Below are positions 12,956 through 55,104 of a stretch of DNA of 64,000 bases, one piece after another (position 1 is the first letter of the stretch; each line of letters opens with the position of its first letter). Source of the stretch: Candidatus Kaiserbacteria bacterium. Lineage in GTDB: Bacteria; Patescibacteriota; Minisyncoccia; Phycocordibacterales; Phycocordibacteraceae. The stretch is from NCBI GenBank assembly GCA_963699165.1, contig OY969413.1:852562-916561 (forward strand). The letters are read 5' to 3'. A program made the position numbers and the translations under genes. Under the pieces are notes generated by a model that saw only the letters and a list, made by a program, of their open reading frames with translations, was not told the origin of the DNA and did not search any database.

Positions 12956-12965
12956 AACATGTATA

Positions 12966-13075
12966 CCGTTAGAAATCGCGAACGCATCAATTTGAATAAC
13001 ACCATGGCAACTATTACTAGCACTAATCGAATAGATACCGGCGTTGTTGAAACGTCCGCGTCCTATTTCTAACGG
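12966..13075. repeat. CCCGTT-palindromic intergenic element, copy 3 (arms CCGTTAGAAATCGCGAACGC / GTCCGCGTCCTATTTCTAACGG)
   Basis: Inverted terminal repeat (11 bp perfect plus an imperfect extension). Starts 11 nt after the rpsF stop and ends 1 nt before the ssb ATG (13077). Interior shares ATTACTAGC with copy 2. Confidence 0.7.
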
Positions 13076-13076
13076 T

Positions 13077-13526
13077 ATGTACCTCAACAAAGCATTTCTC
13101 TACGGCAATCTTACCCGCGACCCGGAGTTGAAGGCGCTTCCGTCCGGCCAGCAGGTCGCATCCTTCGGCATTGCAACGAACCGCACGTACAAGGACAAAA
13201 ACGGCCAGAAGCAGGAGGCAACCGAGTTCCACAACATCGTCGCATTCGGCCGCACCGCGGAAGTCATTGCGCAGTATATGAAGAAAGGCCGCCCGCTGTT
13301 TATCGAAGGCCGCATCCAGACGCGCTCGTGGGAGGGCAAGGAAGATGGCAAGAAGCAGTACCGCACCGAAATCGTCGTCGACAACTTCCAGTTCGGTGCC
13401 GACGGCGGACGCAGCGGGGCAGGCGAAGGCCGCGCATCCGCGCATGATGAACAGCCGGCTCCGAAGGATTCCGACGAGATTAAGTATCCGGACGAGGAAA
13501 TCAATCCGGAAGACATCCCATTTTAA
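13077..13526 (+). CDS. ssb: single-stranded DNA-binding protein
   Basis: MYLNKAFLYGNLTRDPELKALPSGQQVASFGIATNRTYKDKNGQKQEATEFHNIVAFGRTAEV… OB-fold, Gly-rich tail ending in acidic …EDIPF. ATG at 13077 preferred over the TTG at 13044, which lies inside the repeat. Confidence 0.9.
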   Translation: MYLNKAFLYGNLTRDPELKALPSGQQVASFGIATNRTYKDKNGQKQEATEFHNIVAFGRTAEVIAQYMKKGRPLFIEGRIQTRSWEGKEDGKKQYRTEIVVDNFQFGADGGRSGAGEGRASAHDEQPAPKDSDEIKYPDEEINPEDIPF

Positions 13527-24063: not shown

Positions 24064-24448
24064 TGTGGAAGTTTAACTTTCACAAGGTCCGGCTAGGAAA
24101 TTGGCCTAGCGTGAGCGGCCGAAAGGTCTGTCTCAAAGAAAGAACCCCCGTAAGGGGGTTCTTTCTTTTTATCCATGAGCATCTGTGGAAGTTTAACTTT
24201 CACACTGACCCAATCCACCTCCATGAGCATCTGTGGAAGTTTAACTTTCACACTGACTCAATCCACCTCCGGAAGGTCTGACGTTCCGGAACCGGAACCG
24301 GACGCGGCTAAGGGTTGGCCTAGCAGCAAAAACCACTCGCGAGAGGTAGTTTTTTGCGTTTGTATTTCTCTCACATTCCCCAAATGTAAGCATTTGTGGA
24401 AGTTTAACTTTCACACATGCTTGCTTTCCATGTATTTTGTCTGCGGAG

Positions 24449-24489
24449 GTCGTCGCCCTGTGGAAGTTAAACTTCCACAGGGCGACGAC
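24449..24489. promoter_or_regulatory. perfect 41-bp palindrome (20-bp arms) GTCGTCGCCCTGTGGAAGTT a AACTTCCACAGGGCGACGAC
   Basis: Exact reverse-complement symmetry around a single central A, 6 nt upstream of the RAYT ORF. Its core equals the REP consensus made perfect. Confidence 0.7.
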
Positions 24490-25379: not shown

Positions 25380-26176
25380 AGATGCTTTTACTCGCGGTCG
25401 TTGTCGTGGGAGCTGCGGCGCTCGCCGTATTTGCCGAGAATCAAGTTTCAAAGGCGCCTGCGCAGACGGCTTCCTCTACCATTACCGTTTCCACAAGTAC
25501 GCCCGGCGCAACTGTCGCTGTTCCGACGGTGCCCGCGGCAACTCCCGCGCAAGGCGCTGTCGCGACCGGTCCGTTTCCGATTAACCCCGCGGACCGCATC
25601 GCTTCGTGGACTTTTAAAGGCGCATATAGCGGCAACGCGACGCTTACGAGCCAGGCAAATGCCGACATAACTCATCTCACCGGCCTGCTCGGAAAAGGGC
25701 AGTACGACGATTACGACCTCTATGACGGAATCGCAAACGATTACACGTCGCTCGGCGACGGACAGACGGCATACGATAATTACAATCGCGCGATTGCGAT
25801 TCATCCGAGCAAAGGTCTTGCATACGCGAATCTCGGGCATTTGTTTGACGGGCTCGGCGCAGAGTTCACGGCTGCCGATGCGTACGCGAAAGCGACAGTC
25901 GTTGAACCGACGCAAATGGAATATTACATCCAGCGCCTCGACTTTCTCACGGGCAAGCTTCCAAATGACAACTCGGCAATCCTCGCGGCATTTTCGGATG
26001 CGAGCAAACAGTTCGGCGATGCGGCGCCCATCCTTTCGATAGAGGCCGAGTGGCTTGCCGGACAAAAGCGATACGCCGATGCGATTGCCGCGTGGCAAAA
26101 AGTCGAATCACTTTCGCCGGGTGCGGACAATTCTTCGATTGATGCGCAGATAGCCCGACTTAAAGCAAAAGAATGA
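25361..26176 (+). CDS. secreted TPR-repeat protein
   Basis: N-terminal hydrophobic signal (MDKTRNQMLLLAVVVVGAAALAVFA), T/A/P-rich linker, TPR-like helical repeats (YDNYNRAIAIHPSKGLAYANLGHLF…). Start at 25361 supported by duplication of this 5' end in the direct repeat. Confidence 0.5.
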   Translation: MDKTRNQMLLLAVVVVGAAALAVFAENQVSKAPAQTASSTITVSTSTPGATVAVPTVPAATPAQGAVATGPFPINPADRIASWTFKGAYSGNATLTSQANADITHLTGLLGKGQYDDYDLYDGIANDYTSLGDGQTAYDNYNRAIAIHPSKGLAYANLGHLFDGLGAEFTAADAYAKATVVEPTQMEYYIQRLDFLTGKLPNDNSAILAAFSDASKQFGDAAPILSIEAEWLAGQKRYADAIAAWQKVESLSPGADNSSIDAQIARLKAKE

Positions 26177-28368
26177 AATATATCGAGCGCGCGTATCCGT
26201 GGCTTCTCCTTTCGCCGGTCCTCCTGCCGGTCGTGATTGCGGGCGGACTCATTTACCCGTATCTCGTTCCGAAGACGCTATCGTTCTATGCGATTTCTTT
26301 TTTGGCGTTCGGAGTATTTGCAATCCTCGCCGCTAACGGCCGCACGTTTTTCTGGTCGCGGCTTTGGCAGCCCGAGACATGGTTTCCTGCCGCGCTTCTC
26401 GCGCTCGCGTACATCGCGAGCGCGTCGGGCATGGATTTCTATCAGAGTTTCTGGAGTTTGTTTGTGCGCGGCGACGGACTTCTGATGCTGACCTGCGCGG
26501 TCGGCAGTTATTATTTGATTTTGCTGTATGCCGACCGCGCGTTTTTTGAGCGTTTGCTTCGCGCAGTCGCGGTCATCGGGACCTTTGTCGCGGTGTATGG
26601 CATTGGCGAGTGGATGCTCGGCGGCGGCTCGCGCATCGGCGGCCTGCTAGGCAACGCGGAATTTTTCGCCTGTTATCTCGGCATCGCTCTTTTCGCGACG
26701 CTCGCCGCCGCCGAGTCGCTCCCGCGCGCGTGGCGCAATGCCGCGTATGCCGGCGCTGCTCTGCAGATAATCGCAATAGTGTTGAGCGCGACGCGCGGAT
26801 CGATACTTGCGCTCCTGGTCGTCGCGCTCGTCTATCTCGCGTATGCCGCGTTAAAAGGAAAAGGGAAGCGCCGCGCGTATTCCGCGGGCCTGCTCGCCGC
26901 GCTCGTCGTTTTCGGAGGGTTGTTCTTCGCGTTTCGCGGCGAACTTGCGAAGTCGCCGTTTGCGCCGATTGCGCGCGTCGCCGCAATCTCGGCCTCCGAT
27001 GCCGACGTCGCGAGCCGGCTTTTCATTTGGAAAAACATGGCCGCGCAGATTGAACGGCATCCGTGGCTCGGCATCGGCTCCGAACACATCGACGCGCTGT
27101 TCAATAATTTCTACGACCCGACGCAAATAGAGGAAGAATGGTTCGACCGTTCGCACAATGCGTTTCTCGATTACTTTGCGCAGTACGGCATCGGCGGTTT
27201 GCTTCTTTACATCGCGATTATCGGAAGTTTCTTTACGGCCGCGGCGCGCGAAGCGCGCCGCGGCTCCCGCCGCGTTGCGGGGATTTTCGCCCTGCTTGCG
27301 GTTTTGTACGCCGTTCAAAACTTCTTCGTCTTCGACACCGTTTCTTCTTTCTGGCTTCTGCTTGCGCTGCTCGCGACGTTGACCGCGGCATCGCTTGGCA
27401 AAACCTCCCGGGAAGCGGTGCCGCTGCCGTCGTGGACGCGCTACGTCTCTTGGATTTTTGCGGTCGTCCTTATCGCGCTTCTCATTCCGGTTTCGATTTG
27501 TCCGGCGCTTGCGGCATATGACCTTGCGCATGCCTACGGCTATCAGATTTTAGACCCCGCGAAGAGCGCCGCGTATCTATCGGAGGGTTACGCGCTTCAC
27601 ACCTATGGCAATCTCGAATACGGCTACGAAGCGTACGACATGTATGCCTATCAGCAGTCCGAGATGCTCACGGGAGCGCAGCGTGCAAATGCGTATCAAA
27701 CCGCCGTTTCTATTTTGACGTCGAATTTTGGAAATTACACCTATGATGCGCGCACGGCGCTCGACTTGTCGCTTGTGTTTTCGTTAGCGCCGCAAGGGGC
27801 GGCGGTCGACCAAAAATTGTATTCAAGCGCGCTCGAGCGCGCCATTCGCCTGTCACCGAAACGACCGCAGTCCTGGTATATCGTGGCGAATGCTTCCATC
27901 GCGCAAGCGAATACCTACCCGCCATCTTCCTCGGACCGTATCGCCGGCTACAATGCCGCTGCCGGTTTGCTCTCGCAATACATCGCGCTCGTGCCGAATT
28001 TGTCGATGCCGCATTTCCTTCTCGCCCAGCTTGACTTTGCTTCCGGCGATGCGGCCGCAGCCGCAGCGGAAGCGGCGAAAGGGAAACAATATTACAAGGA
28101 CGACCTCGAGACGGCGCGGCACGCCGCAGGGTATTACGAAAATGTTAAGGACTGGACGGATGCCGCGTTCTTCCTTCGCGAAATCGTTCGGCTCTCTCCG
28201 ACCGACACCGCATCATTGTATGACCTTGCAAAGGTGTTGTACCTCTCGGGAAATCCGGCCGAAGCAGATGCTATTGTTATAGAGTTGCGGACAACTCATC
28301 CGGAAATACTTCCGACCGACCAGAATTTCCTTGCCGCTATTACTGCCTATGAATCCCGTTCGAAATAG
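26173..28368 (+). CDS. O-antigen ligase-like (Wzy_C) polytopic membrane protein with C-terminal TPR domain
   Basis: 731 aa with about 12 TM helices including the Wzy_C-like segment (…GAALQIIAIVLSATRGSILALLVVALVYLA…), then a C-terminal soluble TPR-like region. Stop codon lies inside the first CCCGTT element. Confidence 0.55.
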   Translation: MKYIERAYPWLLLSPVLLPVVIAGGLIYPYLVPKTLSFYAISFLAFGVFAILAANGRTFFWSRLWQPETWFPAALLALAYIASASGMDFYQSFWSLFVRGDGLLMLTCAVGSYYLILLYADRAFFERLLRAVAVIGTFVAVYGIGEWMLGGGSRIGGLLGNAEFFACYLGIALFATLAAAESLPRAWRNAAYAGAALQIIAIVLSATRGSILALLVVALVYLAYAALKGKGKRRAYSAGLLAALVVFGGLFFAFRGELAKSPFAPIARVAAISASDADVASRLFIWKNMAAQIERHPWLGIGSEHIDALFNNFYDPTQIEEEWFDRSHNAFLDYFAQYGIGGLLLYIAIIGSFFTAAAREARRGSRRVAGIFALLAVLYAVQNFFVFDTVSSFWLLLALLATLTAASLGKTSREAVPLPSWTRYVSWIFAVVLIALLIPVSICPALAAYDLAHAYGYQILDPAKSAAYLSEGYALHTYGNLEYGYEAYDMYAYQQSEMLTGAQRANAYQTAVSILTSNFGNYTYDARTALDLSLVFSLAPQGAAVDQKLYSSALERAIRLSPKRPQSWYIVANASIAQANTYPPSSSDRIAGYNAAAGLLSQYIALVPNLSMPHFLLAQLDFASGDAAAAAAEAAKGKQYYKDDLETARHAAGYYENVKDWTDAAFFLREIVRLSPTDTASLYDLAKVLYLSGNPAEADAIVIELRTTHPEILPTDQNFLAAITAYESRSK

Positions 28369-28712
28369 CGGACACGGAAGAATACCGTCAGTACGATACG
28401 AGATAGTGTGCCACTGCAAAAAGGGGGCGGTAGACATGATGGTACCCCGCCGCGTCCTATTTCAAACGGGATGAATCCCGTTCGAAATAGCGGACACGGA
28501 AGAATACCGTCAGTACGATACGAGATAGCGTGCCACTGCAAGGGAAGGGCGGTAGACATGAATGGTATCACCCGCGTCCTATTTCAAACGGGATGAATCC
28601 CGTTCGAAATAGCGGACGCCTATCGCACCAAAACGCCTGGTATACTAGTTGGGTACCACCAGTAATTTTAGGCTCCGCTCACCGGTAGTGTCTGCGTCCT
28701 ATTTCAAACGGG
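28355..28712. repeat. three tandem CCCGTT-palindromic elements (28355-28470, 28477-28592, 28599-28712)
   Basis: Each unit is CCCGTTCGAAATAGCGGAC… …GCGTCCTATTTCAAACGGG followed by ATGAAT/ATGAAC. Units 1 and 2 are about 95% identical internally; unit 3 has a different interior with a TACTAG motif. The upstream gene's TAG stop lies in the first left arm (gaaaTAGcgg). Confidence 0.75.
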
Positions 28713-29070
28713 ATGAACAATCAAAAAAATAACAATCAATCATCTCCGCGGCCGAGCGTGCTTCCTTTTTTCGTCGAGTTCGTTAAATTTGCAACCGTTT
28801 TCTCGCTTATCGTTGCGATAGCTCTTTTTACGCTTCGCGTGGCAAGCGCTTTTTCGCAGTAATGTACATTTTTGCCTGGTTCTGGTACAGTGCTCCCGTA
28901 CGAACCGAAGACCGTAGGTCCCGATTTTGTCCAAGAGCAAAGCGATTGGAAACAAAATCGAGGATGCCAACAAGTCCGTTTGTCGGCGCCTGATTTTAAT
29001 CGGATAAACCCTACGTAGGGAGACCATAACAAGGTCGAACTCTCCTTTATTTCGTTCGTACGTACAACGT

Positions 29071-29568
29071 ATGGCAATATCAAAAGACAAGAAGCGCGAG
29101 ATAGTCGCGAAACTGAACGATGCTTTCAAGGAAGCGTCTTCGGTCGCATTCGTGACGTTTACGAAGTTTACCGTCGCCGATTCGGCGAAAGTCCGCAAGG
29201 ACCTTTTGCAGTCGGGCGTGCGCTACTTCGTAGCAAAAAAGACACTCATCAAGCGGGCGCTCGACGAACGCGGGTATAAAGGCACACTGCCTACGCTGCC
29301 CGGCGAAGTCGCCGTTGCATGGACTGCGGGCGATGACACTACTGCGCCGGCGCGCGGCGTGTATGAAAACGGCAAGAAGCTCAAAGGCGCGCTTACCCTT
29401 GCGGGCGGCGTGTTCGACGGAGCGTATCTTGATGCGGCCGAGATTACGGCAATCGCAACCATTCCGCCGATGCAGGTGCTGCGCGGCATGTTCGTCAACG
29501 TCATCAACAGTCCGATTCAGGGACTCGTTATTGCTCTGAATCAAATTGCCGAGAAACAGGCAATTTGA
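29071..29568 (+). CDS. rplJ: 50S ribosomal protein L10
   Basis: MAISKDKKREIVAKLNDAFKEASSVAFVTFTKFTVADSAKVRKDLLQSGVRYFVAKKTLIKRAL matches L10; followed by rplL. Confidence 0.9.
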   Translation: MAISKDKKREIVAKLNDAFKEASSVAFVTFTKFTVADSAKVRKDLLQSGVRYFVAKKTLIKRALDERGYKGTLPTLPGEVAVAWTAGDDTTAPARGVYENGKKLKGALTLAGGVFDGAYLDAAEITAIATIPPMQVLRGMFVNVINSPIQGLVIALNQIAEKQAI

Positions 29569-29664: not shown

Positions 29665-30150
29665 ATGGCAGATGAAATAACTCAGACACCGGAAGCGGCG
29701 GCTCCCGAGGCGCCGGCAAAGGCGGAAGCGCCCGTCGCGGCAGCTCCGGCAGCAGCACCGGCGGAGGAAGCGGTTGAAGTACCGGCAAAGTTCAAGAAGC
29801 TCGTTGAAGAAGTCGAGAAGCTTACGGTTCTCGAACTCTCGGAGCTCGTGAAGGTATTCGAAAAGAAGTTCGGCGTGAGCGCGGCGGCAGTGGCCGTTGC
29901 CGGTCCTGCGGCAGCGGGCGCGGCCGAAGAGGAAGGGAAGTCGACGGCTGACGTCGAACTTACCGATGCGGGCGCAACCAAGATTGCAGTCATCAAAGTT
30001 GTGAAGGAGGCGCTTGCCCTCGGACTTAAGGAGGCCAAGGATCTCGTCGACGCAGCGCCGTCGATGCTGAAGACCGGCCTTAAGAAGGAGGACGCGGCAG
30101 AACTCGCGAAGAAACTCACGGACGCCGGAGCGAAGGTCACTTTGAAGTAA
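29665..30150 (+). CDS. rplL: 50S ribosomal protein L7/L12
   Basis: N-terminal dimerisation helix, long Ala/Pro-rich hinge, C-terminal domain …[56 protein letters not shown]. Confidence 0.9.
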
Positions 30151-32821: not shown

Positions 32822-33639
32822 CGCATTTACGGCACTCGTCTATACTCCGTCCTACGTGTCTACGAACCGAAAGAACCAAGTGATTTTCGAAGCGGATAGG
32901 CCGTCATAGGCCCGCGCGTTACGTAAACGCGAAAGAACCGCTCGAGGCGGTTCTTTCGTTTCAAAGAGGCACTGTAATTTGACATACGAATATCATTGGT
33001 TGAACCGTCCTTAAAAAGACGGTTCATGTCCGCGACTTGTCGTGGACGAAAATCGAAGTTAGAACGTTAATGATTGTGGTATATAGGTCTCCGTACGAGA
33101 GACAATTAAGAGTGCACGGTGGATGCCTTGGCCTTGGACGGCTATGAAGGACGCGACTAACCTGCGAAAAGCTTCGGGGAGGCGGTTTGTAGCCTTTGAT
33201 CCGGAGATATCCGAATGGGGAAACCCTCCAGTTTTGAACTGGAATCCGCGGAGTAACGTCTGCGAGAAGCGAACCCGGGGAAGTGAAACATCTCAGTACC
33301 CGGAGGAAAAGAGAACAATATGAGTTGCGTTCCATTCAAGCGTATGTTCGTTTGAATGGAACGCGACTCGCGTGATACCCCAAGTAGCGGCGAGCGAAAA
33401 GGGAAAAGCCCAAACCTCTTTCTTCGGAAAGGGGGGTTGTAAGATGTGAACATCGTACTTGTACGAAAAGAGTTATCAATCGTCTGTATAACAGAAGCTG
33501 CTGGGAAGCAGCGCCCAAGAGGGTAATGGCCCCGTATGTGAAATGCATGACGACTCTTGTTCATATTCTTGAGTAGCTCGAGACACGAATAGCTCGAGTG
33601 AATCTGCCGGAACTAACCGGTAAGGCTAAATACGTCCAA

Positions 33640-33680
<41 letters not shown>

Positions 33681-35120
33681 CACCCCGAGAGGGGAGTGAA
33701 ATAGAACTGAACCCGTGTACTTACAAGGGGTCGGAGCGGATGCTTGCATCCGTGACGGCATGCCTATTGAAGAATGAGCCGGCGAGTGTGTGTATCTTGC
33801 TTAGCTAAGCCCTTCCGGGGCGGAGCTTAAGGGAAACCGAGCGTGAATAGCGCGTCTGTAGGATACATACGACCCGAAGCCAGATGAGCTTGCCATGAGC
33901 AGGGTGAAGTTTGTCGAAAGACAAATGGAGGCCCGAACCCGTAGGTCGTACAACGCCTTGGGATGACTTGTGGTAAGGAGTGAAAAGCTAATCGAATCTG
34001 GGAATAGCTGGTTCTCTCCGAAACAGCTTTTGGGCTGGCGTTGCAATAAGTGTACGTGGGGGTAGAGCACTGGAAGGGACCAACAGGGAGAAATCTCGTG
34101 GTTCCTATCAAACTCCGAATACCACGTGCCCGTGCAGCAGTTAGTAGGTGGGGGCGAAGCTCCATCGAACGAGAGGGGAAGAGCCCTGATCGCCACTTAA
34201 GGCCCCTAAATCGACATTCAGTACATCCACAAGGAAGTGAGGACTCATAAACAGTGAGGATGTTGGCTTAGAAGCAGCCACCATTTAAAGAAAGCGTAAC
34301 AGCTCACTCATCGAGAGTCCTTGCGCCGAAGATGATCGGGGTTAAATGTCGTGCCGAAATTGCGGGTTTGGTTTGTTCTGTATACAAACCAAGCGGTAGG
34401 AGAGCGTTCTGTTCGCTATGAAGCTAAAGGGATAACCCATGGTGGAGCGTACAGAAGTGAGAATGCCGGTACAAGTAACCACAATGCGGGTGAGAACCCC
34501 GCACGTCGAAAGACCAAGGTTTCCTCAGCTATGGTGATCAACTGAGGGTTAGTCGGGCCTAAGGGGATGGCGAGAGCCGCACCCGATGGACACACGGTCA
34601 ATATTCCGTGACCGTTTATAGAGGCAATGGAGTGACGGACTGCTGTATGTACTGCCGGTAATTGGATTCCGGTTGGCAGTGCGAGGGCGCGCGTTAGGTA
34701 AATCCGGCGCGCATTACCCCGAGCACTGACACAATTTTCTCCTTCGGGGGAAGAGAGAGTGCAAAGCGCGGTTTCAAGAAAACCTTCTACGCATCAACTC
34801 TATAGACGACCGTACCGCAAACCGACACAGGTGGTCAGGTCGAGAAGACCAAGACGAACGAGTAAGATGTCCTCAAGGAACTCGGCAAAAAAGCGGCCGT
34901 AAGTTAGCGATAAGGCCTGCCCTTCATCCGCAAGGATGGGGGGCCGCAGTGAAAGTTTTCCTGGCAACTGTTTACCAAAAACACAACTCCCTGCAAACTC
35001 GTAAGAGGAAGTATAGGGGGTGACACCTGACCAATGCCGGAAGGTCAACCACGGTGGGTATGCTGCTTCGGTAGTATGCTGGACTGTGTAAGCCCCGGTG
35101 AATGTCGGCGATAACTATAA

Positions 35121-35920
35121 TCGTGGACTCGCTACCACCTGCGCAAGCAGGTCATGAGTAGGGCGATTGTAAAATTCGGCCAAATGCTGGAACAACTGTC
35201 TCGAAAAGAGTTAGAGCATACGCTACCGTGTAGGTAACAATGCGTATGTGCAGTCAATCAGCAGGAAAGGCCGATGCAGGTATTGCCCACGCAAAATAAT
35301 AACTTGCGTATGGACAACACTACAAAAGAGCTCCTGAAACTTTTTCACGGCAAACGAGACGCTCTGCATTATTATGTTGCAGGTTTCGTTGACGGAGAAA
35401 GCAGTTTTAGTGTAGCGATTCTTAAAAATCCCTTCAAAAAAGAAGGGTGGCTGATTAATCCGTGTTTTCAGGTGTATCAACATCAGAATCACAGAGAAAT
35501 CTTGGAGTTATGCAAAGAAGTATTTAAGACCGGAAGAATATATCGCAAAAGCGGTACACATCCCGTCCTAAACTTCAGTATTGACTCAATACGGAATCTA
35601 AAAGAGAAGGTAGTACCTTTCTTCGATAGATATCCGCTCATAACAAAACGCGAATCGTATCAAAAATTCCGGGACATTGTAGTATCAATGGACAGGAAAG
35701 AGCACTTGACCTCTAAAGGGTTTGAGCGTTTGGTACGGCTTGCGTACAGTATGAATCAGCAGGGCAAAGGTCGCAGGAGAACTCTTGAAGAGGTTCTTGC
35801 GACTCAGCCCAAACCTGCATCGGAATCCTCAGAGACTTTACGCCGAACTCACGCTTAGTGGGCAGTGAGATGATAAAGTCCAATCCTCATGGCGACATGA
35901 GGGGCTTCGAGAAATCGAAA
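35121..35920 (+). mobile_element. group I intron in 23S (E. coli position about 1917 region) with LAGLIDADG ORF
   Basis: 23S exon …aactataa | … | cctaaggtagcg…; the E. coli sequence AACTATAACGGTCCTAAGGTAGCG is interrupted by about 800 nt containing ORF 35274..35858. Confidence 0.7.
35274..35858 (+). CDS. LAGLIDADG homing endonuclease (intron-encoded)
   Basis: LHYYVAGFVDGESSFSVAI (LAGLIDADG motif) plus a second half-motif; lower GC than the host; inside the 23S. Confidence 0.8.
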   Translation: MQVLPTQNNNLRMDNTTKELLKLFHGKRDALHYYVAGFVDGESSFSVAILKNPFKKEGWLINPCFQVYQHQNHREILELCKEVFKTGRIYRKSGTHPVLNFSIDSIRNLKEKVVPFFDRYPLITKRESYQKFRDIVVSMDRKEHLTSKGFERLVRLAYSMNQQGKGRRRTLEEVLATQPKPASESSETLRRTHA

Positions 35921-36588
35921 TGCCTAAGGTAGCGTAATTCCTTGTCGGGTAAATTCCGACGTGCACGAATGGTGTAATGACTGGGAAACTGTCTCGAGGA
36001 CTCGCTCGGTGAAAATGCACTTCCGGTGAAGATGCCGGATACCTGTAGTTAGACGAAAAGACCCCAGGAGCTTTACTACAGCTTCGTATTGGCCCTGCGG
36101 GATACATGCGTAGCATAGATGGGAGACATTGAAGCATTCCTTTCGGGGGATGTGGAGTCGTCAGTGAAATACCATTCTTGTATCTTGCAGTGTCTAACCC
36201 CGTTGGGATCCAACGGGGGACCGTGCGTGGCAGGTAGTTTTGGTGGGGCGCTATCCTCCTAAAAAGTAACGGAGGAGTCTATTAAGGTTCTCTAGGCGCG
36301 AATGGAAACCGTGCCGATAGTGTAATGGCATAAGAGAGCTTAACTGCGAGGGGTACTTCCCGAGCAGATGCGAAAGCAGAGCATAGTGAACCGATGGTAC
36401 GCCTTAGATGCGGCCAGAGATTAACGGATATAAGTTACCCTGGGGATAACAGGCTAGTTCCGCCCAAGCGTCCTTAGCGACGGCGGAGTTCGGCACCTCG
36501 ATGTCGGCTCACCATAGCGCGGGGCTGGAGAAGGTCCCAAGCGTTTGGCTGTTCGCCAATTAAAATGGTACGCGAGCTGGGTTCAGAC

Positions 36589-36995
36589 CGTTCAGCAACT
36601 AACAAGAGTTGGTGATTGAACGGTCTGAATCCACGAGGCAATTGTTAGGTGCGTGGAGACGCACTATGCGTCCCGGTAGAGACAAGAACCTCACCAAGGT
36701 TCTGGCTCGCTAAAGCGAGCGTCTCTAACGGGATGCGAAAGACATACTCACGGCGGTCCCGAATAGGAATATTCGGGAAGCAAATCAACTGATATCGGTG
36801 AAATCCAATCTCATTGTGTATGAGAGGACAACACCGAGGGAATTCTTTGCAATCGCAAAGAGACCCGTAGAGACTGAATGTTGATGCTCCAGGCTAAAAC
36901 AATCTCGAAGAGATTGTTCGCCCGAACTTTTGCAACGCAAAAGTTTTAGGGAGTAAGTTACAGTCCGATCCTCCGAGTAATCGGAGTTAACTAGA
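36589..36995 (+). mobile_element. ORF-less group I intron in 23S (position about 2593, I-CreI-type site region)
   Basis: Conserved 23S GGGTTTAGAACGTCGTGAGACAG is split: gggttcaga | about 407 nt | (t)gcgtgagacagg. No ORF. Contains a CCCGTT-palindromic element copy (36671-36733). Confidence 0.6.
36671..36733. repeat. CCCGTT-palindromic element copy inside 23S intron (arms TCCCGGTAGAGACA / GTCTCTAACGGGA + TG)
   Basis: 13-14 bp arms nearly identical to copy 1 (5022-5102), in the same orientation, ending ...aacgggATG. Interior forms two short hairpins (agaacc…ggttct; gctcgc taaa gcgagc). Confidence 0.5.
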
Positions 36996-37050
36996 TGCGT
37001 GAGACAGGTTGGTCTCCTATCTACTACAGGCGTTGATTCTTGAGGAGGGT

Positions 37051-37849
37051 TGTCCCTAGTAAGAAATTGCTACTTCAGAGAGAGATCTCTGATGACAACA
37101 TGGCTTATAACGGTGGAGTCTAATGTGCTTCCGGTTTTAGAGTTTCATATCCCGCGGTCCTGTGGATATTTAACTCGCTTGAGGACCAGAATGCTACTAT
37201 GATAATACCGTGGGAAGTCGACCAAATAAAGTTGCAGATTATGCGTATATTGCGGGCTTCTTGGATGGAGATGGCAGTCTCATGCTCCAAGTAAAGAAAC
37301 GCAATGATTCGACCAAGGGAGTGCGCTTCATGGCGACAATATGTCTGTATCAAGACAGTCGCCACGATGTGCCACTCTCATGGATTCGAACGCGGCTCAA
37401 GTGCGGATACGTTTCTAAACGAAACGATAGTATGACGGAATTGCGCATCAACGGTTTCTCGCAGGTGCGAGAAACTCTAGAGATGCTTCAGCCGTATCTT
37501 CGTTTCAAAAAGAAACAAGCAAGACTCTTGATTCAGGCATGCAAAATGCTCGAGCGAGACACGCTTCGCACTATGAAGCCGAAAAATATACGCAAGATTG
37601 TCGATCTCTTGTTGCTCATACAAAATGAAAACTATATGAGCAAGAGACGAAAGACAAAAGAAGAACTGCATCAGATACTTGGTTTGACCCCGTAACGACT
37701 TAGGTTGAAAGATACCTAGACTCATAGGTTGAGGAATCATTTCTCAGAGAATGACTGCTCCTATGGGTAAGATGCCATCATCCTAACCCCGAATAGCGGA
37801 GAAGGATGAAGATATAGTCTGCGCTCCTGGAAACAGGGGAACGAAGCGA
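37051..37849 (+). mobile_element. group I intron in 23S (between CCTAGTA and CGAGAGGACC, about position 2650s) with LAGLIDADG ORF
   Basis: Conserved CCTAGTACGAGAGGACCGG is split (…gtccctagta | about 800 nt | cgagaggaccgg…). Contains ORF 37210..37695. Confidence 0.7.
37210..37695 (+). CDS. LAGLIDADG homing endonuclease (intron-encoded)
   Basis: YAYIAGFLDGDGSLMLQV motif; 161 aa (single-motif size). Confidence 0.8.
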   Translation: MGSRPNKVADYAYIAGFLDGDGSLMLQVKKRNDSTKGVRFMATICLYQDSRHDVPLSWIRTRLKCGYVSKRNDSMTELRINGFSQVRETLEMLQPYLRFKKKQARLLIQACKMLERDTLRTMKPKNIRKIVDLLLLIQNENYMSKRRKTKEELHQILGLTP

Positions 37850-38219
37850 CGAGAGGACCGGGATGAACTGACCTCTGGTCTACCAGCTGTCCTGCCAAGG
37901 GCACCGCTGGGTAGCTATGTCGGGTTGCGATAACCGCTGAAAGCATATAAGCGGGAAACGTGCTCCAAGATTAGGAATCGTTATGAGACACCTCGGAGAT
38001 GACGAGGTTGATAGGCTCTAGATGGAAGCGCCGCAAGGCGTGGAGTCGAGGAGTACTAATATGTCCAGTCTCTCGTGCGGAACTCTGTATATCAGTCATT
38101 CGTTCGCACTCGGGCGAACGGTTTGCAAAACAAACCGTTGTAGCCGCTTTGTTTTTCAATACCAATGATTTATCGTAGCGTCGAACATGTAAGTGTTCGG
38201 TTCCAATTGTGTGCTTTGT

Positions 38220-38334
38220 GCTGGTGCTTTGGCGGTGGGGTCATACCCGATCTCATTCCGAACTCGGCAGTCAAGCCCGCTAGCGCCGATGGTACTCATC
38301 GTTACAGATGGGGAGAGTAGGTAGGCGCCAGCAC
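38220..38334 (+). rRNA. rrf: 5S rRNA
   Basis: gctggtgctttggcggtggggtcatacccgatctcattccgaactcggcagtcaagcccgctagcgccgatggtactc…gcgccagcac: closing helix 1 and conserved loop C/E motifs. Lies about 130 nt after the 23S 3' end. Confidence 0.85.
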
Positions 38335-50424: not shown

Positions 50425-50978
50425 TATACCGTCTTCCGTCAGAAGACCCCTTGCCGGGCCTTCTCGGCGGGGCGGTTTTCTGATTTTTTGGGGCAAGTTC
50501 CCCCGCACATTTAAAGGCCGCTCCGGCTATTGACTTGCTTTGGCCGTTCATATAGTATGCATCTACTGCCTCGAAAGAGGCGGGATTTCTTTTGCTCTAG
50601 TTCGTTGACATTCTAAATACGTGTTAATTCCCGCGACGCGCAGCGTCGCGGGAGAAAGATGTGTGAATTCTTTTGTTCCGCCTATTCTTATTGAGAGTTT
50701 GATCCTAGCTCAGGGTGAATGCTGGCGGCGTGGATAAGTCATGCAAGTCAAGGGGGCCCGCAAGGGCAACCGGCAGACGAGGTAGTAACACGTAGGTACG
50801 TCCCCCGAAGTCGGGCATAGCCATCCGAAAGGATGGGTAATTCCCGATAGTCCCGCAAGGGTAAAGGTTTTTCGCTTCGGGAGCGGCCTGCGTAGTATCA
50901 GCTAGTTGGTAGGGTAACGGCCTACCAAGGCTACGACGCTTAGGGGAGCTGAGAGGCTGACCCCCACCGATGGGACTG

Positions 50979-51678
50979 CGATAAAAGTTGTCGCCTTGGG
51001 GAGTAATCCCCAATGATTAATCTTGCTCATAACGGTGAAGCCTGACTGATGGGTGTATAATAATACCCATCAAAGGTAATACCGTGGGAAGTCGACACTA
51101 TCTTTCAGACGCATATTTGGCAGGATTCTTGGACGGAGACGGCTCTGTTGTGGCAACGCTTGAGCGATACCACAGCAAGCGGTTTCCGTATCGTGTGCGC
51201 ATCAAGGTGAATTTCACCCAACATGCAAAACACAAAGATAAACTGGCACTAATGCAAGAGGCGCTCGGCGGTTATGGAGTTATCCGAACCAATGCGCGCA
51301 AAAATCTTGCGGAGCTGGTAATCCAAGAACGAAATCAAGTACAAGCGGTGCTCGCGCGTCTCGTGCCATTTCTTCTAATAAAAAAAGACCAGGCAATTCT
51401 GGCTCTTGAAGTATTAGAGAAAATGAGCTCCAACGAGAAGCATAAACCGAGCACGTTGTCTGAAAGAGCGTATATTCGTATTCTGTCAGTAGTACAGAAA
51501 ATTCGTCGTTTGAATTCCCATACGGGAGGCAAACGCGAGATACGAGTGTTTGACCCCGTAACGACTGAATTTCCGGAGCAACCCGGAATGAAGACGGAAT
51601 CTTCGGATTCTGTAAGACGCAAGCCCCTCGCACGAACGAGGGTGAAAGTATAGTCTGTGCCATAAGAAATTATGGAAT
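50979..51678 (+). mobile_element. group I intron in 16S (after ...GGGACTG, E. coli position about 320s) with LAGLIDADG ORF
   Basis: Conserved …ACTGAGACACGG…CTCCTACGGGAGGCAGCAG is split: …gggactg | about 700 nt | aacgacggcccatactcctacgggaggctgcag. Confidence 0.65.
51084..51653 (+). CDS. LAGLIDADG homing endonuclease (intron-encoded)
   Basis: AYLAGFLDGDGSVVATL motif; 189 aa. Confidence 0.8.
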   Translation: MGSRHYLSDAYLAGFLDGDGSVVATLERYHSKRFPYRVRIKVNFTQHAKHKDKLALMQEALGGYGVIRTNARKNLAELVIQERNQVQAVLARLVPFLLIKKDQAILALEVLEKMSSNEKHKPSTLSERAYIRILSVVQKIRRLNSHTGGKREIRVFDPVTTEFPEQPGMKTESSDSVRRKPLARTRVKV

Positions 51679-52109
51679 AAACGACGGCCCATACTCCTAC
51701 GGGAGGCTGCAGACGAGAATATTCCGCAATGGACGAAAGTCTGACGGAGCGACGCCGCGTGATGGATGAAGTGCTTTGGTACGTAAACATCTTTTACCGG
51801 GGAAGAAATTATTGACGGTACCCGGTGAATAAGGGGCTCCTAACTCTGTGCCAGCAGGAGCGGTAATACAGAGGCCCCAAGCATTACCCGGAATCATTGG
51901 GCGTAAAGGGTGTCTAGGCGGCCATATTAGTCTCTCGTTAAATCCGCGGGCTCAACCTGCGGCATGCGAGGGAAACGGTATGGCTCGAGGGCGTAAGAGG
52001 TGCACGGAACTCATGGTGGAGGGGTGAAATCCGTTGATATCATGGGGAACACCGAAAGCGAAGGCAGTGCACTGGTACGTTCCTGACGCTCAAACACGAA
52101 AGCCAGGGT

Positions 52110-52143
<34 letters not shown>

Positions 52144-52727
52144 CCTCAACGTTGCTCGCTCGTTTTACGGAGTATCGACCCTCTGTGAGACTAAGCTAAC
52201 GCGGTAAGCGAGCCGCCTGGGTAGTACGATCGCAAGATTAAAACTCAAAGGAATAGACGGGGACTCGCACAAGTGGTGGATTATGCGGCTTAATTCGTCG
52301 ATAAACGAAGAACCTTACCAAGGTTAGAAATCCAGCTGCATCCAACTCGAAAGAGATGGAGCCTTCGAGGGTGCTGGACAGGTGATGCATGGTCGTCGTC
52401 AGTTCGTGGTTTGAACTGTTCCCTTCAGTGGGGTAACGAACGCAACCCCCGTTGTCTGTTGCCTATATGGTCAGGCGAGACTGCTCCCTCACGGGAGAGG
52501 AAGGTGGGGATGACGCCAGATCAGCATGTCCCTCTGATACCTTGGGCTGCACGCATAATACAATGGTCGGTACAACGGGTTGCAATGCCGTAAGGCGGAG
52601 CCAATCCTTATAAAACCGACCCCAGTACGGATTGAGGTCTGCAACCGACCTCATGAAGCCGGAATCACTAGTAATCCCGGGTCAGCCAAACCGGGGTGAA
52701 TACGTTCTCGAGTCTTGTACTCGGGTC

Positions 52728-53710
52728 GCCATGCGATCCGAGCATCTAGTTGGTGACTCTTGGAATAGAGAAGTCCAACCGCGCCGTGGCGGCGTGAAGC
52801 GAAATCGCAGTGTCGATACCGCGAGGTATGGCATGAAGGGTGAAAGTAGCAGTGTGTAGCGTGAACGCTAGTTTGTGGCGCCTAGAGTGGGAGATCCCGC
52901 GAGTACAGGGAGAATCCAGCCACACCAAAAGCTCTAGGCGTGTAGTGGCGTCGCGATACATATACACAGATGTTCGGGTTACCGTGGGAGATCTGTTATG
53001 TTCCTCGTGGTAAACTAACCTCGAGGTATGCGGATGAGCAATCATCGTAAATGACATGACAGAAGTCAGCAGAGGTCGTAGTACCGCCGTATGAAAGGTA
53101 AACGCAATACGCGTCTGCTTGAACCGGTAGGGAAGGACCGAATTCGTAGGAAGCCGCTCGACGGAGCATATGTTGCCGGATTTATCGACGGGGAAGGTTC
53201 CTTTTCCGTCAGTATCGGCAAACACGCGACTCTATCGCGCGGACTTGAAGTGCGTCCTGAATTTGAAATTGAAGTGCGTGCGGATGATCGAGAAATTCTT
53301 GAGCGAATTCTCGTTACTGTCGGCTGCGGAAGAATCTATGACTGCTCGTATGAGCGGTACGGATGGTATCCGCATGTCAAATACAAAGTGACGAGCACGC
53401 GCGAGATGGAGGAGATTCTCTTCCCGTTTCTCGATAACAATCCGCTCCAAGCGAAGAAAGCGGAATCGTATCTTCTCTTTAAAGAGATTGTGCTTTCGTA
53501 TCGGCGCAAGGAGCATCTCACCGATGCCGGTTTCAACAACATTCTCGAAACGCGCAATCGATTGCGAGCTCTCGGAAAGAAGGCTAAAACATTTCAGTTA
53601 TGAAATGTTCGCCCAATGAAGAGCTCGCACCTACGGAAACCGCTAGGGTGCAGGAAAGCTGCTTGCCCAGTGGTGTTTGTGAGAGTGGTAGTAATATCAC
53701 AAAACGCAAG
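52728..53710 (+). mobile_element. group I intron in 16S (within CTTGTAC|ACACCGCCCGTCA, position about 1400) with LAGLIDADG ORF
   Basis: …gaatacgttctcgagtcttgtac | about 980 nt | (at)accgcccgtcaagtcaagg…. Confidence 0.65.
53091..53603 (+). CDS. LAGLIDADG homing endonuclease (intron-encoded)
   Basis: AYVAGFIDGEGSFSVSI motif; 170 aa. Confidence 0.8.
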   Translation: MKGKRNTRLLEPVGKDRIRRKPLDGAYVAGFIDGEGSFSVSIGKHATLSRGLEVRPEFEIEVRADDREILERILVTVGCGRIYDCSYERYGWYPHVKYKVTSTREMEEILFPFLDNNPLQAKKAESYLLFKEIVLSYRRKEHLTDAGFNNILETRNRLRALGKKAKTFQL

Positions 53711-54051
53711 ATACCGCCCGTCAAGTCAAGGGAGCTGGGGGTGCCCGAAGGTCTGCCTTGCGCAGGACTACGGCAAATTCAGTGACAAGGACTAAGTCGT
53801 AACAAGGCACGGGTAGCGGAAGCTGTTCGTGGAACATATCCAAATTGGAACCGATATCGCCCGAAAGGCATATCATGTCGATACGATTCGCAAGAATCGT
53901 GAGAGATAGTACTCGTCTCTAAACGGTACTCGGAAGCCGGATAACGTAACCCGGTGGTCCTTCACACGAGAAAGCATCGCGGAGCTTCGCTTCGCATGTG
54001 TATACAATGCTTTCTCGTGTGTGGGGGAACAGAATAGGCGGAACAAAAGAG

Positions 54052-54101
54052 CGCACACAAACACAAATAAGCCCCTGCGGGCTTATTTGTGTTTGTGTGC
54101 G
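54052..54101. terminator. perfect 21-bp-stem hairpin (bidirectional terminator candidate) downstream of 16S
   Basis: cgcacacaaacacaaataagccc ctgc gggcttatttgtgtttgtgtgcg; preceded by a second inverted repeat (cacacgagaaagca…tgctttctcgtgtg, 53964-54024). Confidence 0.5.
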
Positions 54102-55031: not shown

Positions 55032-55104
55032 GCACGCGTAGCTCAGTTGGTAGAGCACCCGACTGATACTCGGGCGGTCGTAGGTTCGACCCCTACCGCG
55101 TGCA
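55032..55104 (+). tRNA. tRNA-Ile (anticodon GAT)
   Basis: Acceptor gcacgcg/cgcgtgc, D-arm gctcagttggtagagc, anticodon stem cccga/tcggg with loop ctGATac, T-arm gtaggTTCGACCcctac. Followed by a terminator hairpin at 55106-55141. Confidence 0.8.

Follow-up and report, generated by a model that had tools for sequence, protein, structure and literature searches.

Tandem copies of a putative mobile hairpin element at a start codon in a Candidatus Kaiserbacteria genome

Results and Discussion

Structure of the array

A stretch of 64,000 nucleotides from the genome of Candidatus Kaiserbacteria bacterium (assembly GCA_963699165.1, contig OY969413.1, positions 852,562 to 916,561 of the forward strand), referred to below as the window, was analyzed; all positions are counted from its first letter. 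The region 28349-28718 holds a tandem array of three palindromic units, which sequence comparison identifies as three copies of a non-autonomous hairpin element resembling MITEs (miniature inverted-repeat transposable elements). The element is common in the Candidate Phyla Radiation (CPR)/Patescibacteria, with more than 100 loci in CPR genomes. It is mostly found at start codons and is probably read through by the ribosome so that the host gene stays expressed, the array forming a relay of short open reading frames (ORFs).

The original prediction of three head-to-tail units of 116, 116 and 114 bp was borne out. Unit 1 (28355-28470), unit 2 (28477-28592) and unit 3 (28599-28712) are hairpin elements on the forward strand, and the hexamer ATGAAT stands between consecutive units. 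Tandem Repeats Finder reported units 1 and 2 as a repeat of period 122 with 2.2 copies, 93% matches and a score of 466. A gap-free comparison gave 89% identity, and the description of these two units as near-identical is supported by the first value but somewhat generous in view of the second. The differences include a compensated frameshift of unit 2 relative to unit 1, which leaves both unit ORFs open. Unit 3 shares only the arms with units 1 and 2, about 25 nt on each side, and its interior is unrelated. This different interior had been recognized before; the motif reported in it (ATACTAG) resembles the ATTACTAG of the solo copies only weakly. The solo copies themselves, previously noticed near 8963 and 12966, were located at 8962-9075 and 12965-13076. 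The arm motif occurs nine times in the window compared with 1.2 expected occurrences, and none of 100 shuffled sequences reached nine. The proposal of a dispersed, mobile palindromic element that also occurs in tandem is correct in essence. A long hairpin is predicted for each array unit on either strand (z = -3.5 to -5.9), and the array folded as one piece gave z = -5.8. The arrangement of the hairpins is tandem and not, as had been suggested, nested.

Tandem, repeat-rich regions of this kind are readily expanded or collapsed by assemblers. However, contig JBAPNL010000070.1 of another public record (GCA_049279115.1) matches this region over 5287 bp with 100% identity, and the three units all lie within the match, although the read sets of both records may not be independent. 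A gross assembly artefact is therefore unlikely, and as the units differ from each other they are not collapsed copies. Together with arrays of the CRISPR, REP (repetitive extragenic palindrome) or integron attC type, which do not account for the solo copies dispersed in the window, an artefact is hardly credible as an explanation. CRISPR, correctly rejected in the original prediction, is ruled out by hairpins of about 116 bp with interiors 89-93% identical between units 1 and 2, as opposed to repeats of about 21-48 bp with unique spacers. REP sequences and bacterial interspersed mosaic elements (BIMEs) are GC-rich palindromes of 20-40 nt with a 5' GTAG at the 3' ends of genes, and are ruled out by a length of about 115 nt, the lack of a GTAG head and the position at gene 5' ends. 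In attC sites the order is 5' RYYYAAC ... GTTRRRY 3'; on either strand the element shows the reverse order, 5' GTTAGA ... TCTAAC 3', and a cassette context is missing, which rules out this class too. The array contains no U-tract or terminator-like site, and an intrinsic terminator was discarded.

Insertion at the start codon of orf49

The array follows an O-antigen-ligase-like gene (26173-28368; 731 aa, Wzy_C and TPR domains, Pfam Wzy_C E = 8e-24) and precedes the genes rplJ for ribosomal protein L10 (29071-29568) and, 3' of it, rplL (29665-30150), both assigned by Pfam; all are located on the forward strand. It had been placed immediately upstream of the rplJ leader, but actually occupies the start codon of a small gene preceding rplJ, designated orf49 (28713-28862, forward strand). 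This conserved gene of 49 codons encodes a small membrane-like protein (MNNQKNN...LPFFVEFVKF...) that matched no Pfam family, and its regenerated start codon abuts unit 3. A gene of this kind is easily overlooked in annotation.

Relatives of the locus were collected by a metagenome scan with the L10 protein, which yielded 80 related loci with 60-77% identity. The gene order TPR protein, Wzy ligase, orf49, rplJ and rplL is conserved among them. Most of the 80 loci gave tblastn matches to orf49, which lies directly upstream of rplJ and as a rule overlaps the Wzy-like gene at its end. The majority represent the empty site (...gcctATGAACAATC; ...gcctATGAACAATCAAAAAAATAA; ...actgcctATGAACAATCAAAAAAATAA), in which the ligase stop codon overlaps the orf49 start, and the ancestral overlap between both genes amounts to 17 nt. 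The filled site in the window reads ...gcctATGAA / ...actgcctATGAA, followed by a T, the three units and ATGAACAATC. Four relatives (loci L143, L148, L152 and L179) harbor one unit of a different subfamily at the exact site of the array, with an identical ATGAA repeat. The comparison of empty and filled sites places the insertion of the array exactly at the orf49 start codon. On this comparison the left target copy (28349-28354, forward strand), consisting of ATGAA and the terminal T of the element, is the former start codon of orf49 and now the start of the unit-1 ORF.

The end of the ligase gene is affected as well. Its stop codon (28366-28368) is overlapped by the array, and the left arm of unit 1 supplies the final four sense codons and the stop (TCC CGT TCG AAA TAG). 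The protein ends with ..AYEQSKK* in relatives and with ..AYESRSK* in the window, its C-terminal residues having been rewritten by the insertion. The duplication or insertion activity proposed earlier is thus evident as insertion, from the empty sites in most of the approximately 80 loci and from the unit of another subfamily in four of them. That the activity is ongoing is not shown at the array, since a divergence of 7-11% already separates units 1 and 2. The duplicated start codon, the unit ORFs with their ATGA overlaps and the spread of the family over CPR genomes had escaped notice in the original prediction.

Distribution and consensus of the element family

A search with the right-arm 18-mer GCGTCCTATTTCNAACGG in one genome per prokaryotic species matched at least 119 stretches. 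About 110 of these belong to metagenome-assembled genomes (MAGs) of CPR/Patescibacteria and carry the matching left arm 97-142 nt upstream. As deposited, the host MAGs are labeled Kaiser-, Giovannoni-, Nomura-, Wolfe-, Lloyd- and Niyogibacteria, Paceibacterota, Parcubacteria and Saccharibacteria. The few non-CPR matches among those listed lack the left arm and appear chance-like. The family consensus is ATGNR-Y-CCCGTTAGAAAT...ATTTCTAACGGG-R-TGNR. Members of the major family, 97-142 bp long with a mode of 115, follow the consensus ATGNN-T-CCCGTTAGAAATCGCGGACGC, about 75 variable nt, GTCCGCG-TCCT-ATTTCTAACGGG-ATGNN. A relaxed search with the 9-nt termini CCCGTTAGA...TCTAACGGG gave a superfamily set of 168 distinct elements of 26-200 nt. 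They form many subfamilies, whose arms differ yet remain complementary. Positions -2 to 12 of the terminal inverted repeats are paired in more than 90% of the elements, the terminal pair being T-A in 120 and C-G in 40 cases. Across subfamilies, arm positions 10-12 vary among A-T, G-C and T-A, and the changes at -1 and 10-12 are compensatory. Start codons flank both sides of 113 elements.

Known families gave no counterpart. The peptides encoded by the elements, the longest from an ORF of 41 codons, matched no Pfam family, and neither the arm nor the gapped superfamily pattern was matched in the viral contigs of IMG/VR. Rfam yielded no match at the gathering threshold in the whole window; a permissive scan of 28300-29100 returned Glutamine-II at chance level (E = 5.4). 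No description of the family was found in a literature search of incomplete coverage, and it is apparently undescribed so far, an earlier description being possible.

Some loci show composite structures. At L089 an element of 142 nt consists of a 115-nt element with a 27-nt mini-hairpin (CCCGTTAGAGGCTGTGCCTCTAACGGG) inside, flanked on both sides by a GCGTG repeat. L048 carries a tandem pair of units from different subfamilies, and at L078, L020 and L006 arm remnants adjoin full units.

Target duplication and orientation

The two bases following the ATG are the same on both flanks in 104 of the 113 elements bounded by start codons, compared with a mean of 43.4 and a maximum of 59 in 10,000 shuffles. 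Moreover, the downstream start codon always begins with the complement of the base preceding CCCGTT, irrespective of the left start codon (A/T/A in 97, A/C/G in 12 and G/T/A in four elements). This pattern is most simply read as a duplication of 4 bp (TGNR) by an element Y-CCCGTTAGA...TCTAACGGG-R; for the A/T/A majority, 5 duplicated bp would fit just as well.

The elements keep a fixed orientation with respect to the gene. In the frame of an inverted copy the reverse strand is rich in stop codons (205 versus 86 and 88 in the other frames), and the fixed orientation could therefore arise by selection alone. The genes with an element at their start in the window are ssb (13077), an AI-2E transporter gene (9076), recO (5103) and orf49 (28713). 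Downstream genes are functionally unrelated and comprise recO, ssb, transporter, secA-like and rpmJ-like genes, of which the last two were assigned by their N-terminal sequence only. Loci L022 and L043, which belong to the same MAG (JBBDVD01), contain identical 115-nt elements before different genes; in both cases a -10 box precedes the left ATG by 6-7 nt. The pair is the strongest sign of recent transposition in the sample. Orthologous insertions were found at ssb (window, L087, L105), at a secA-like gene (L076, L099) and at the transporter gene (window, L096); they are 20-30% diverged, which indicates that these insertions are old.

The fixed orientation and the start codon within the stem would also suit a cis-regulatory RNA of the host, that is, a folded leader which masks the start codon, couples expression of a regulon to upstream translation or a trans-acting factor, and is repeated because it is useful and not because it is mobile. 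Conservation of the arms in distant CPR lineages and the retention of orthologous copies before ssb and secA agree with such a role. However, it does not explain the target duplications, the occurrence of one site in empty or filled form among relatives and with different subfamilies, or the identical copies at unrelated genes of one genome. The downstream genes lack a common function, the interiors are unconserved, some copies are located away from gene starts, and no Rfam family was matched. A regulatory origin is thus improbable.

Reading frames through the element

Element length modulo 3 is not uniform (n = 97, p = 4e-9). In 61 elements the left ATG shares its phase with a right-arm TAA (TTTC-TAA-CGGG-ATG) that precedes the new start codon by 4 nt; the phase of 21 elements leads to an ATGA overlap, and that of 15 continues into the frame of the gene. 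Read in the frame of the start codon, 50 of the 61 elements in the TAA class have no stop in the interior, whereas the other two frames are open in one and six. Among 98 elements of the major family, 46 can be read without a stop from the left ATG up to the TAA and six up to the ATGA overlap. Frames of orthologous insertions (ssb, secA and others) have remained open despite 20-30% divergence and codon-sized indels. In-frame fusion of element and gene is rare (4/113). The idea of a small ORF that starts from an ATG inside the element, served by a separate -10 box, had also been considered and was dropped, as the main class is open from the left ATG.

The encoded peptides comprise 36-41 residues and typically have the ends M-x-PVRNRGR and SASYF. 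Such an excess of open frames, the conserved N- and C-termini and an N-R-I-G-F/Y-G-like motif in many copies might be expected of a multi-copy gene family for a functional protein of about 38 residues (MNPVRNRGR...SASYF), which might act as a leader peptide, as a toxin or in association with the ribosome. But the conserved termini are encoded by the two complementary arms, frame-shifted copies have another C-terminus (...VRVLFLTG), half of the copies are interrupted, and no Pfam match was obtained. In addition, substitutions between orthologous copies are distributed over the codon positions as 82 : 93 : 77. This absence of a third-position bias leads us to reject a functional peptide, and a small-protein family is very unlikely. 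Selection appears to act on the open frame and not on the sequence of the peptide.

These observations suggest the following course of events for a MITE-like element that is read through. Mobilized in trans by a putative transposase, the element would enter at a 4-bp staggered cut. The surviving copies lie directly behind the first base of a start codon, with the old start codon kept on the left, and the last base of the element (A or G) and the duplicated TG rebuild a start codon on the right. Transcription and initiation signals would remain with the left copy; at the array, the overlap with the ligase gene would serve as this signal, and a promoter scan revealed no convincing promoter upstream of the array. 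A ribosome starting at the left start codon would translate the short ORF and thereby unwind the hairpin, terminate at the TAA 4 nt before the rebuilt start or at the overlapping TGA (ATGA), and reinitiate on the host gene. As the host gene would stay expressed, an insertion would be cheap and tolerated even before essential genes. Tandem arrays would result because each insertion regenerates the target on both sides. The orf49 start may have been entered by the element or its relatives three times, or twice with duplication of one unit, the regenerated target being re-used each time.

At the array, the relay would proceed from the ligase stop through the ORFs of units 1, 2 and 3 to orf49, all on the forward strand. 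The unit-1 ORF (28349-28474; 41 codons, MNPVRNSGHG...RVLFQTG*) ends with a TGA that overlaps the ATG of unit 2 (ATGA), and the unit-2 ORF (28471-28596; 41 codons) overlaps the ATG of unit 3 in the same way. The unit-3 ORF (28593-28688; 31 codons) is in frame with orf49 and stops at a TAG (28686-28688) 24 nt before the orf49 ATG.

Initiation context and RNA processing

Hexamers resembling a -10 box show a peak 6 nt upstream of the left ATG, where they occur in 23 of 96 elements, and 38 of the 96 have one at a distance of 6-8 nt. In the same region, motifs of the Shine-Dalgarno type are almost absent (2/96). This spacing and the near-absence of Shine-Dalgarno-like motifs imply that in a large fraction of loci leaderless mRNAs start at the left AUG. 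Other copies are operon-internal, as at the junctions rpsF-ssb, aminoacyl-tRNA synthetase-recO and Wzy-orf49.

Leaderless transcripts would also fit a processing of the RNA, in which the hairpin of the MITE is cleaved at its base, e.g. by RNase III, to give a new leaderless mRNA near the regenerated AUG, with the ORFs of the element being secondary. RNase III processing has been reported for the Correia elements of Neisseria. The first two bases of the downstream AUG take part in closing the stem (pair -1 is Watson-Crick in 161 of 168 elements; pair -2 is A-U in 111 and G.U in 38), many targets look leaderless, and half of the copies have premature stops yet are located before essential genes. 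However, processing leaves unexplained the excess of open frames, the class of lengths in TAA phase and the open frames across orthologous insertions. We regard it as a serious rival of, or complement to, translation through the element, although one with a rather low probability.

Several points weigh against the relay. The start-codon frame contains a premature stop in 46 of the 98 major-family elements and in 15 of 20 elements of other subfamilies, including unit 3 and the copy at 8962. With about half of the elements affected, the relay is no universal requirement. The hairpin (-36 to -53 kcal/mol) begins at nucleotide 5 of a leaderless mRNA and should hinder initiation unless the ribosome loads co-transcriptionally. 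Stem mismatches in the 168 elements show no excess of G.U over A.C, and hence no evidence of selection on the RNA structure. The elements do not represent phylogenetically independent samples. A cognate transposase or autonomous copy was found neither in about 1.3 Mb of family loci, where arms 0.2-4 kb apart gave only a few orphan cores consistent with chance, nor with a profile of 43 element peptides, which retrieved from 5.8 billion proteins just four tiny proteins and no long protein with an MNPVRNRGR N-terminus. Finally, some copies lie off start codons (the members at 2063 and 36672 in the window, and 26 of the 168 superfamily elements), and the association with start codons may therefore reflect selection and not targeting. 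It is doubtful, though conceivable, that the element actively homes to gene starts, e.g. to the open promoter complex or the 5' end of leaderless genes, and/or that its hairpin is removed from the transcript with regeneration of a leaderless mRNA.

Comparison with known systems

MITEs are generally shorter than 200 bp, with a maximum of about 400 bp, and have terminal inverted repeats and a target-site duplication but no transposase (PMC3184786). The CPR elements agree with them in size, terminal inverted repeats, target duplication, the absence of an internal transposase and the presence of filled and empty sites. Mycobacterial interspersed repetitive units (MIRUs) are reported to be mobile repeats that insert at start codons, and their internal ORF is coupled to the gene with a -4 spacing that minimizes the impact on expression (PMC12548453). 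Compared by architecture and description, as sequence homology is not expected, MIRUs appear to be the functionally closest described system. The CPR elements are likewise short, apparently mobile repeats at start codons with a stop codon that overlaps or abuts the gene start. However, the phylum that harbors MIRUs is unrelated to CPR, and the CPR element is a long hairpin with terminal inverted repeats, unlike MIRUs, which have a size of 46-101 bp. CPR elements are also usually solitary, most of them use a TAA with a 4-nt spacer instead of the ATGA overlap, and they duplicate the ORF start, with the new start codon taking its first base from the element. On these sequence features we classify the CPR element as a putative MITE with MIRU-like translational coupling.

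Hairpin MITEs such as Correia/NEMIS, ERIC, RUP and Nezha share with it a length of about 100-160 bp, terminal inverted repeats, target-site duplication and the absence of a transposase, as well as long stable stem-loops, co-transcription with neighbors and empty or filled sites between relatives. In contrast to these, the CPR element targets the start codon itself in a fixed orientation, and the ORF through it seems to be under selection to stay open. Its termini (CCCGTTAGA) bear no relation to the termini of these families, its host range is CPR, and no parent insertion sequence is known. The Rickettsia palindromic elements, reportedly described by Ogata and colleagues in 2000, are said to be mobile palindromic repeats that are tolerated as translated sequence. 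They are located in frame inside genes and are part of the protein, whereas the CPR element forms a separate upstream ORF and fusion is rare.

Other copies and features of the window

In total the window contains eight units at six sites, all on the forward strand. The solo copy between rpsF and ssb (12965-13076) has the flanks ATGTAT / ATGTAC and an intact ORF of 37 codons (12959-13072), whose TAA precedes the ssb ATG at 13077 by 4 nt. In the program-made ORF list, ssb begins with a TTG in the right arm of the element (13044-13526, 160 aa). From the logic of the duplicated start and the Pfam SSB match, the true start is judged to be the ATG at 13077, giving a protein of 149 aa. The second solo copy (8962-9075), between a class II aminoacyl-tRNA synthetase gene and the AI-2E transporter gene (ATG 9076), has an interrupted ORF and flanks ATGTGT versus ATGAAT, of which the left one has diverged. 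An 80-nt member of another subfamily with arms CCCGTTAGAGAC..GTCTCTAACGGG (5023-5102; flanks ATGCGT / ATGCGG) is positioned at the recO start (5103), and the class I aminoacyl-tRNA synthetase gene upstream of it ends with a stop codon provided by this member. At the recO start of two relatives (L025 and L088), the 115-nt family is found in place of the 80-nt member. A 102-nt member with arms CCCGTTACAAAT..ATTTGTAACGGG (2063-2164; flanks gcttgc / gctagg) is intergenic and not at a start codon. A 61-nt member (36672-36732; flanks ATGCGT / ATGCGA) lies at the 3' margin of the match to 23S rRNA, without a recognizable gene start. The members at 2063, 5023 and 36672 have only the CCCGTTAGA/TCTAACGGG termini in common with the reported family.

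Further regions of the window are repetitive or unusual. In the segment 23933-24489 a motif of 22-25 nt, CTGTGGAAGTTTAACTTTCACA, occurs six or seven times; one of these copies is a perfect 20+20 palindrome (24449-24489), and a 48-bp tandem repeat is located at 24172-24270. The sequence TGTGGAAGT resembles a DnaA box (TGTGNAWAA), and the segment could be an origin or an operator cluster. The rRNA genes (33096-38333 and 51498-52752) are unlinked and of unusual structure. The 23S match extends over 3582 nt for a model of 2925 nt and thus carries insertions, and the 5S gene follows 1.5 kb further on, with an ORF for a LAGLIDADG endonuclease (37210-37695) in between. The 16S match is 15 kb away and covers only 1255 nt of a 1533-nt model. 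A 29-nt inverted repeat (50660-50688 / 54031-54059) brackets the 16S region with its arms 3.3 kb apart. Its distal arm is overlapped by a perfect 23-bp hairpin (54052-54101) just upstream of the tRNA at 55032, which may be an rRNA processing stem.

Implications

Gene callers are misled by the elements, which cause false N-terminal extensions such as the TTG start of ssb and alter upstream C-termini. Tandem arrays could act as strain markers similar to variable-number tandem repeats. The family represents selfish DNA that is able to occupy essential genes (ssb, recO and the rplJ operon) at a probably low cost, and the parallel with MIRUs in mycobacteria, which are also rich in leaderless genes, suggests convergent evolution. 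If targeting to gene starts or removal of the hairpin were true, this would be a start-site-homing element with 'invisibility' at the RNA level, spread across a whole bacterial radiation by a putative enzyme. CPR/Patescibacteria constitute a large share of bacterial diversity, and their mobile DNA and gene expression are barely known. The element family provides a sequence-level handle on both, as it marks real start codons and, in many loci, points to leaderless transcription.

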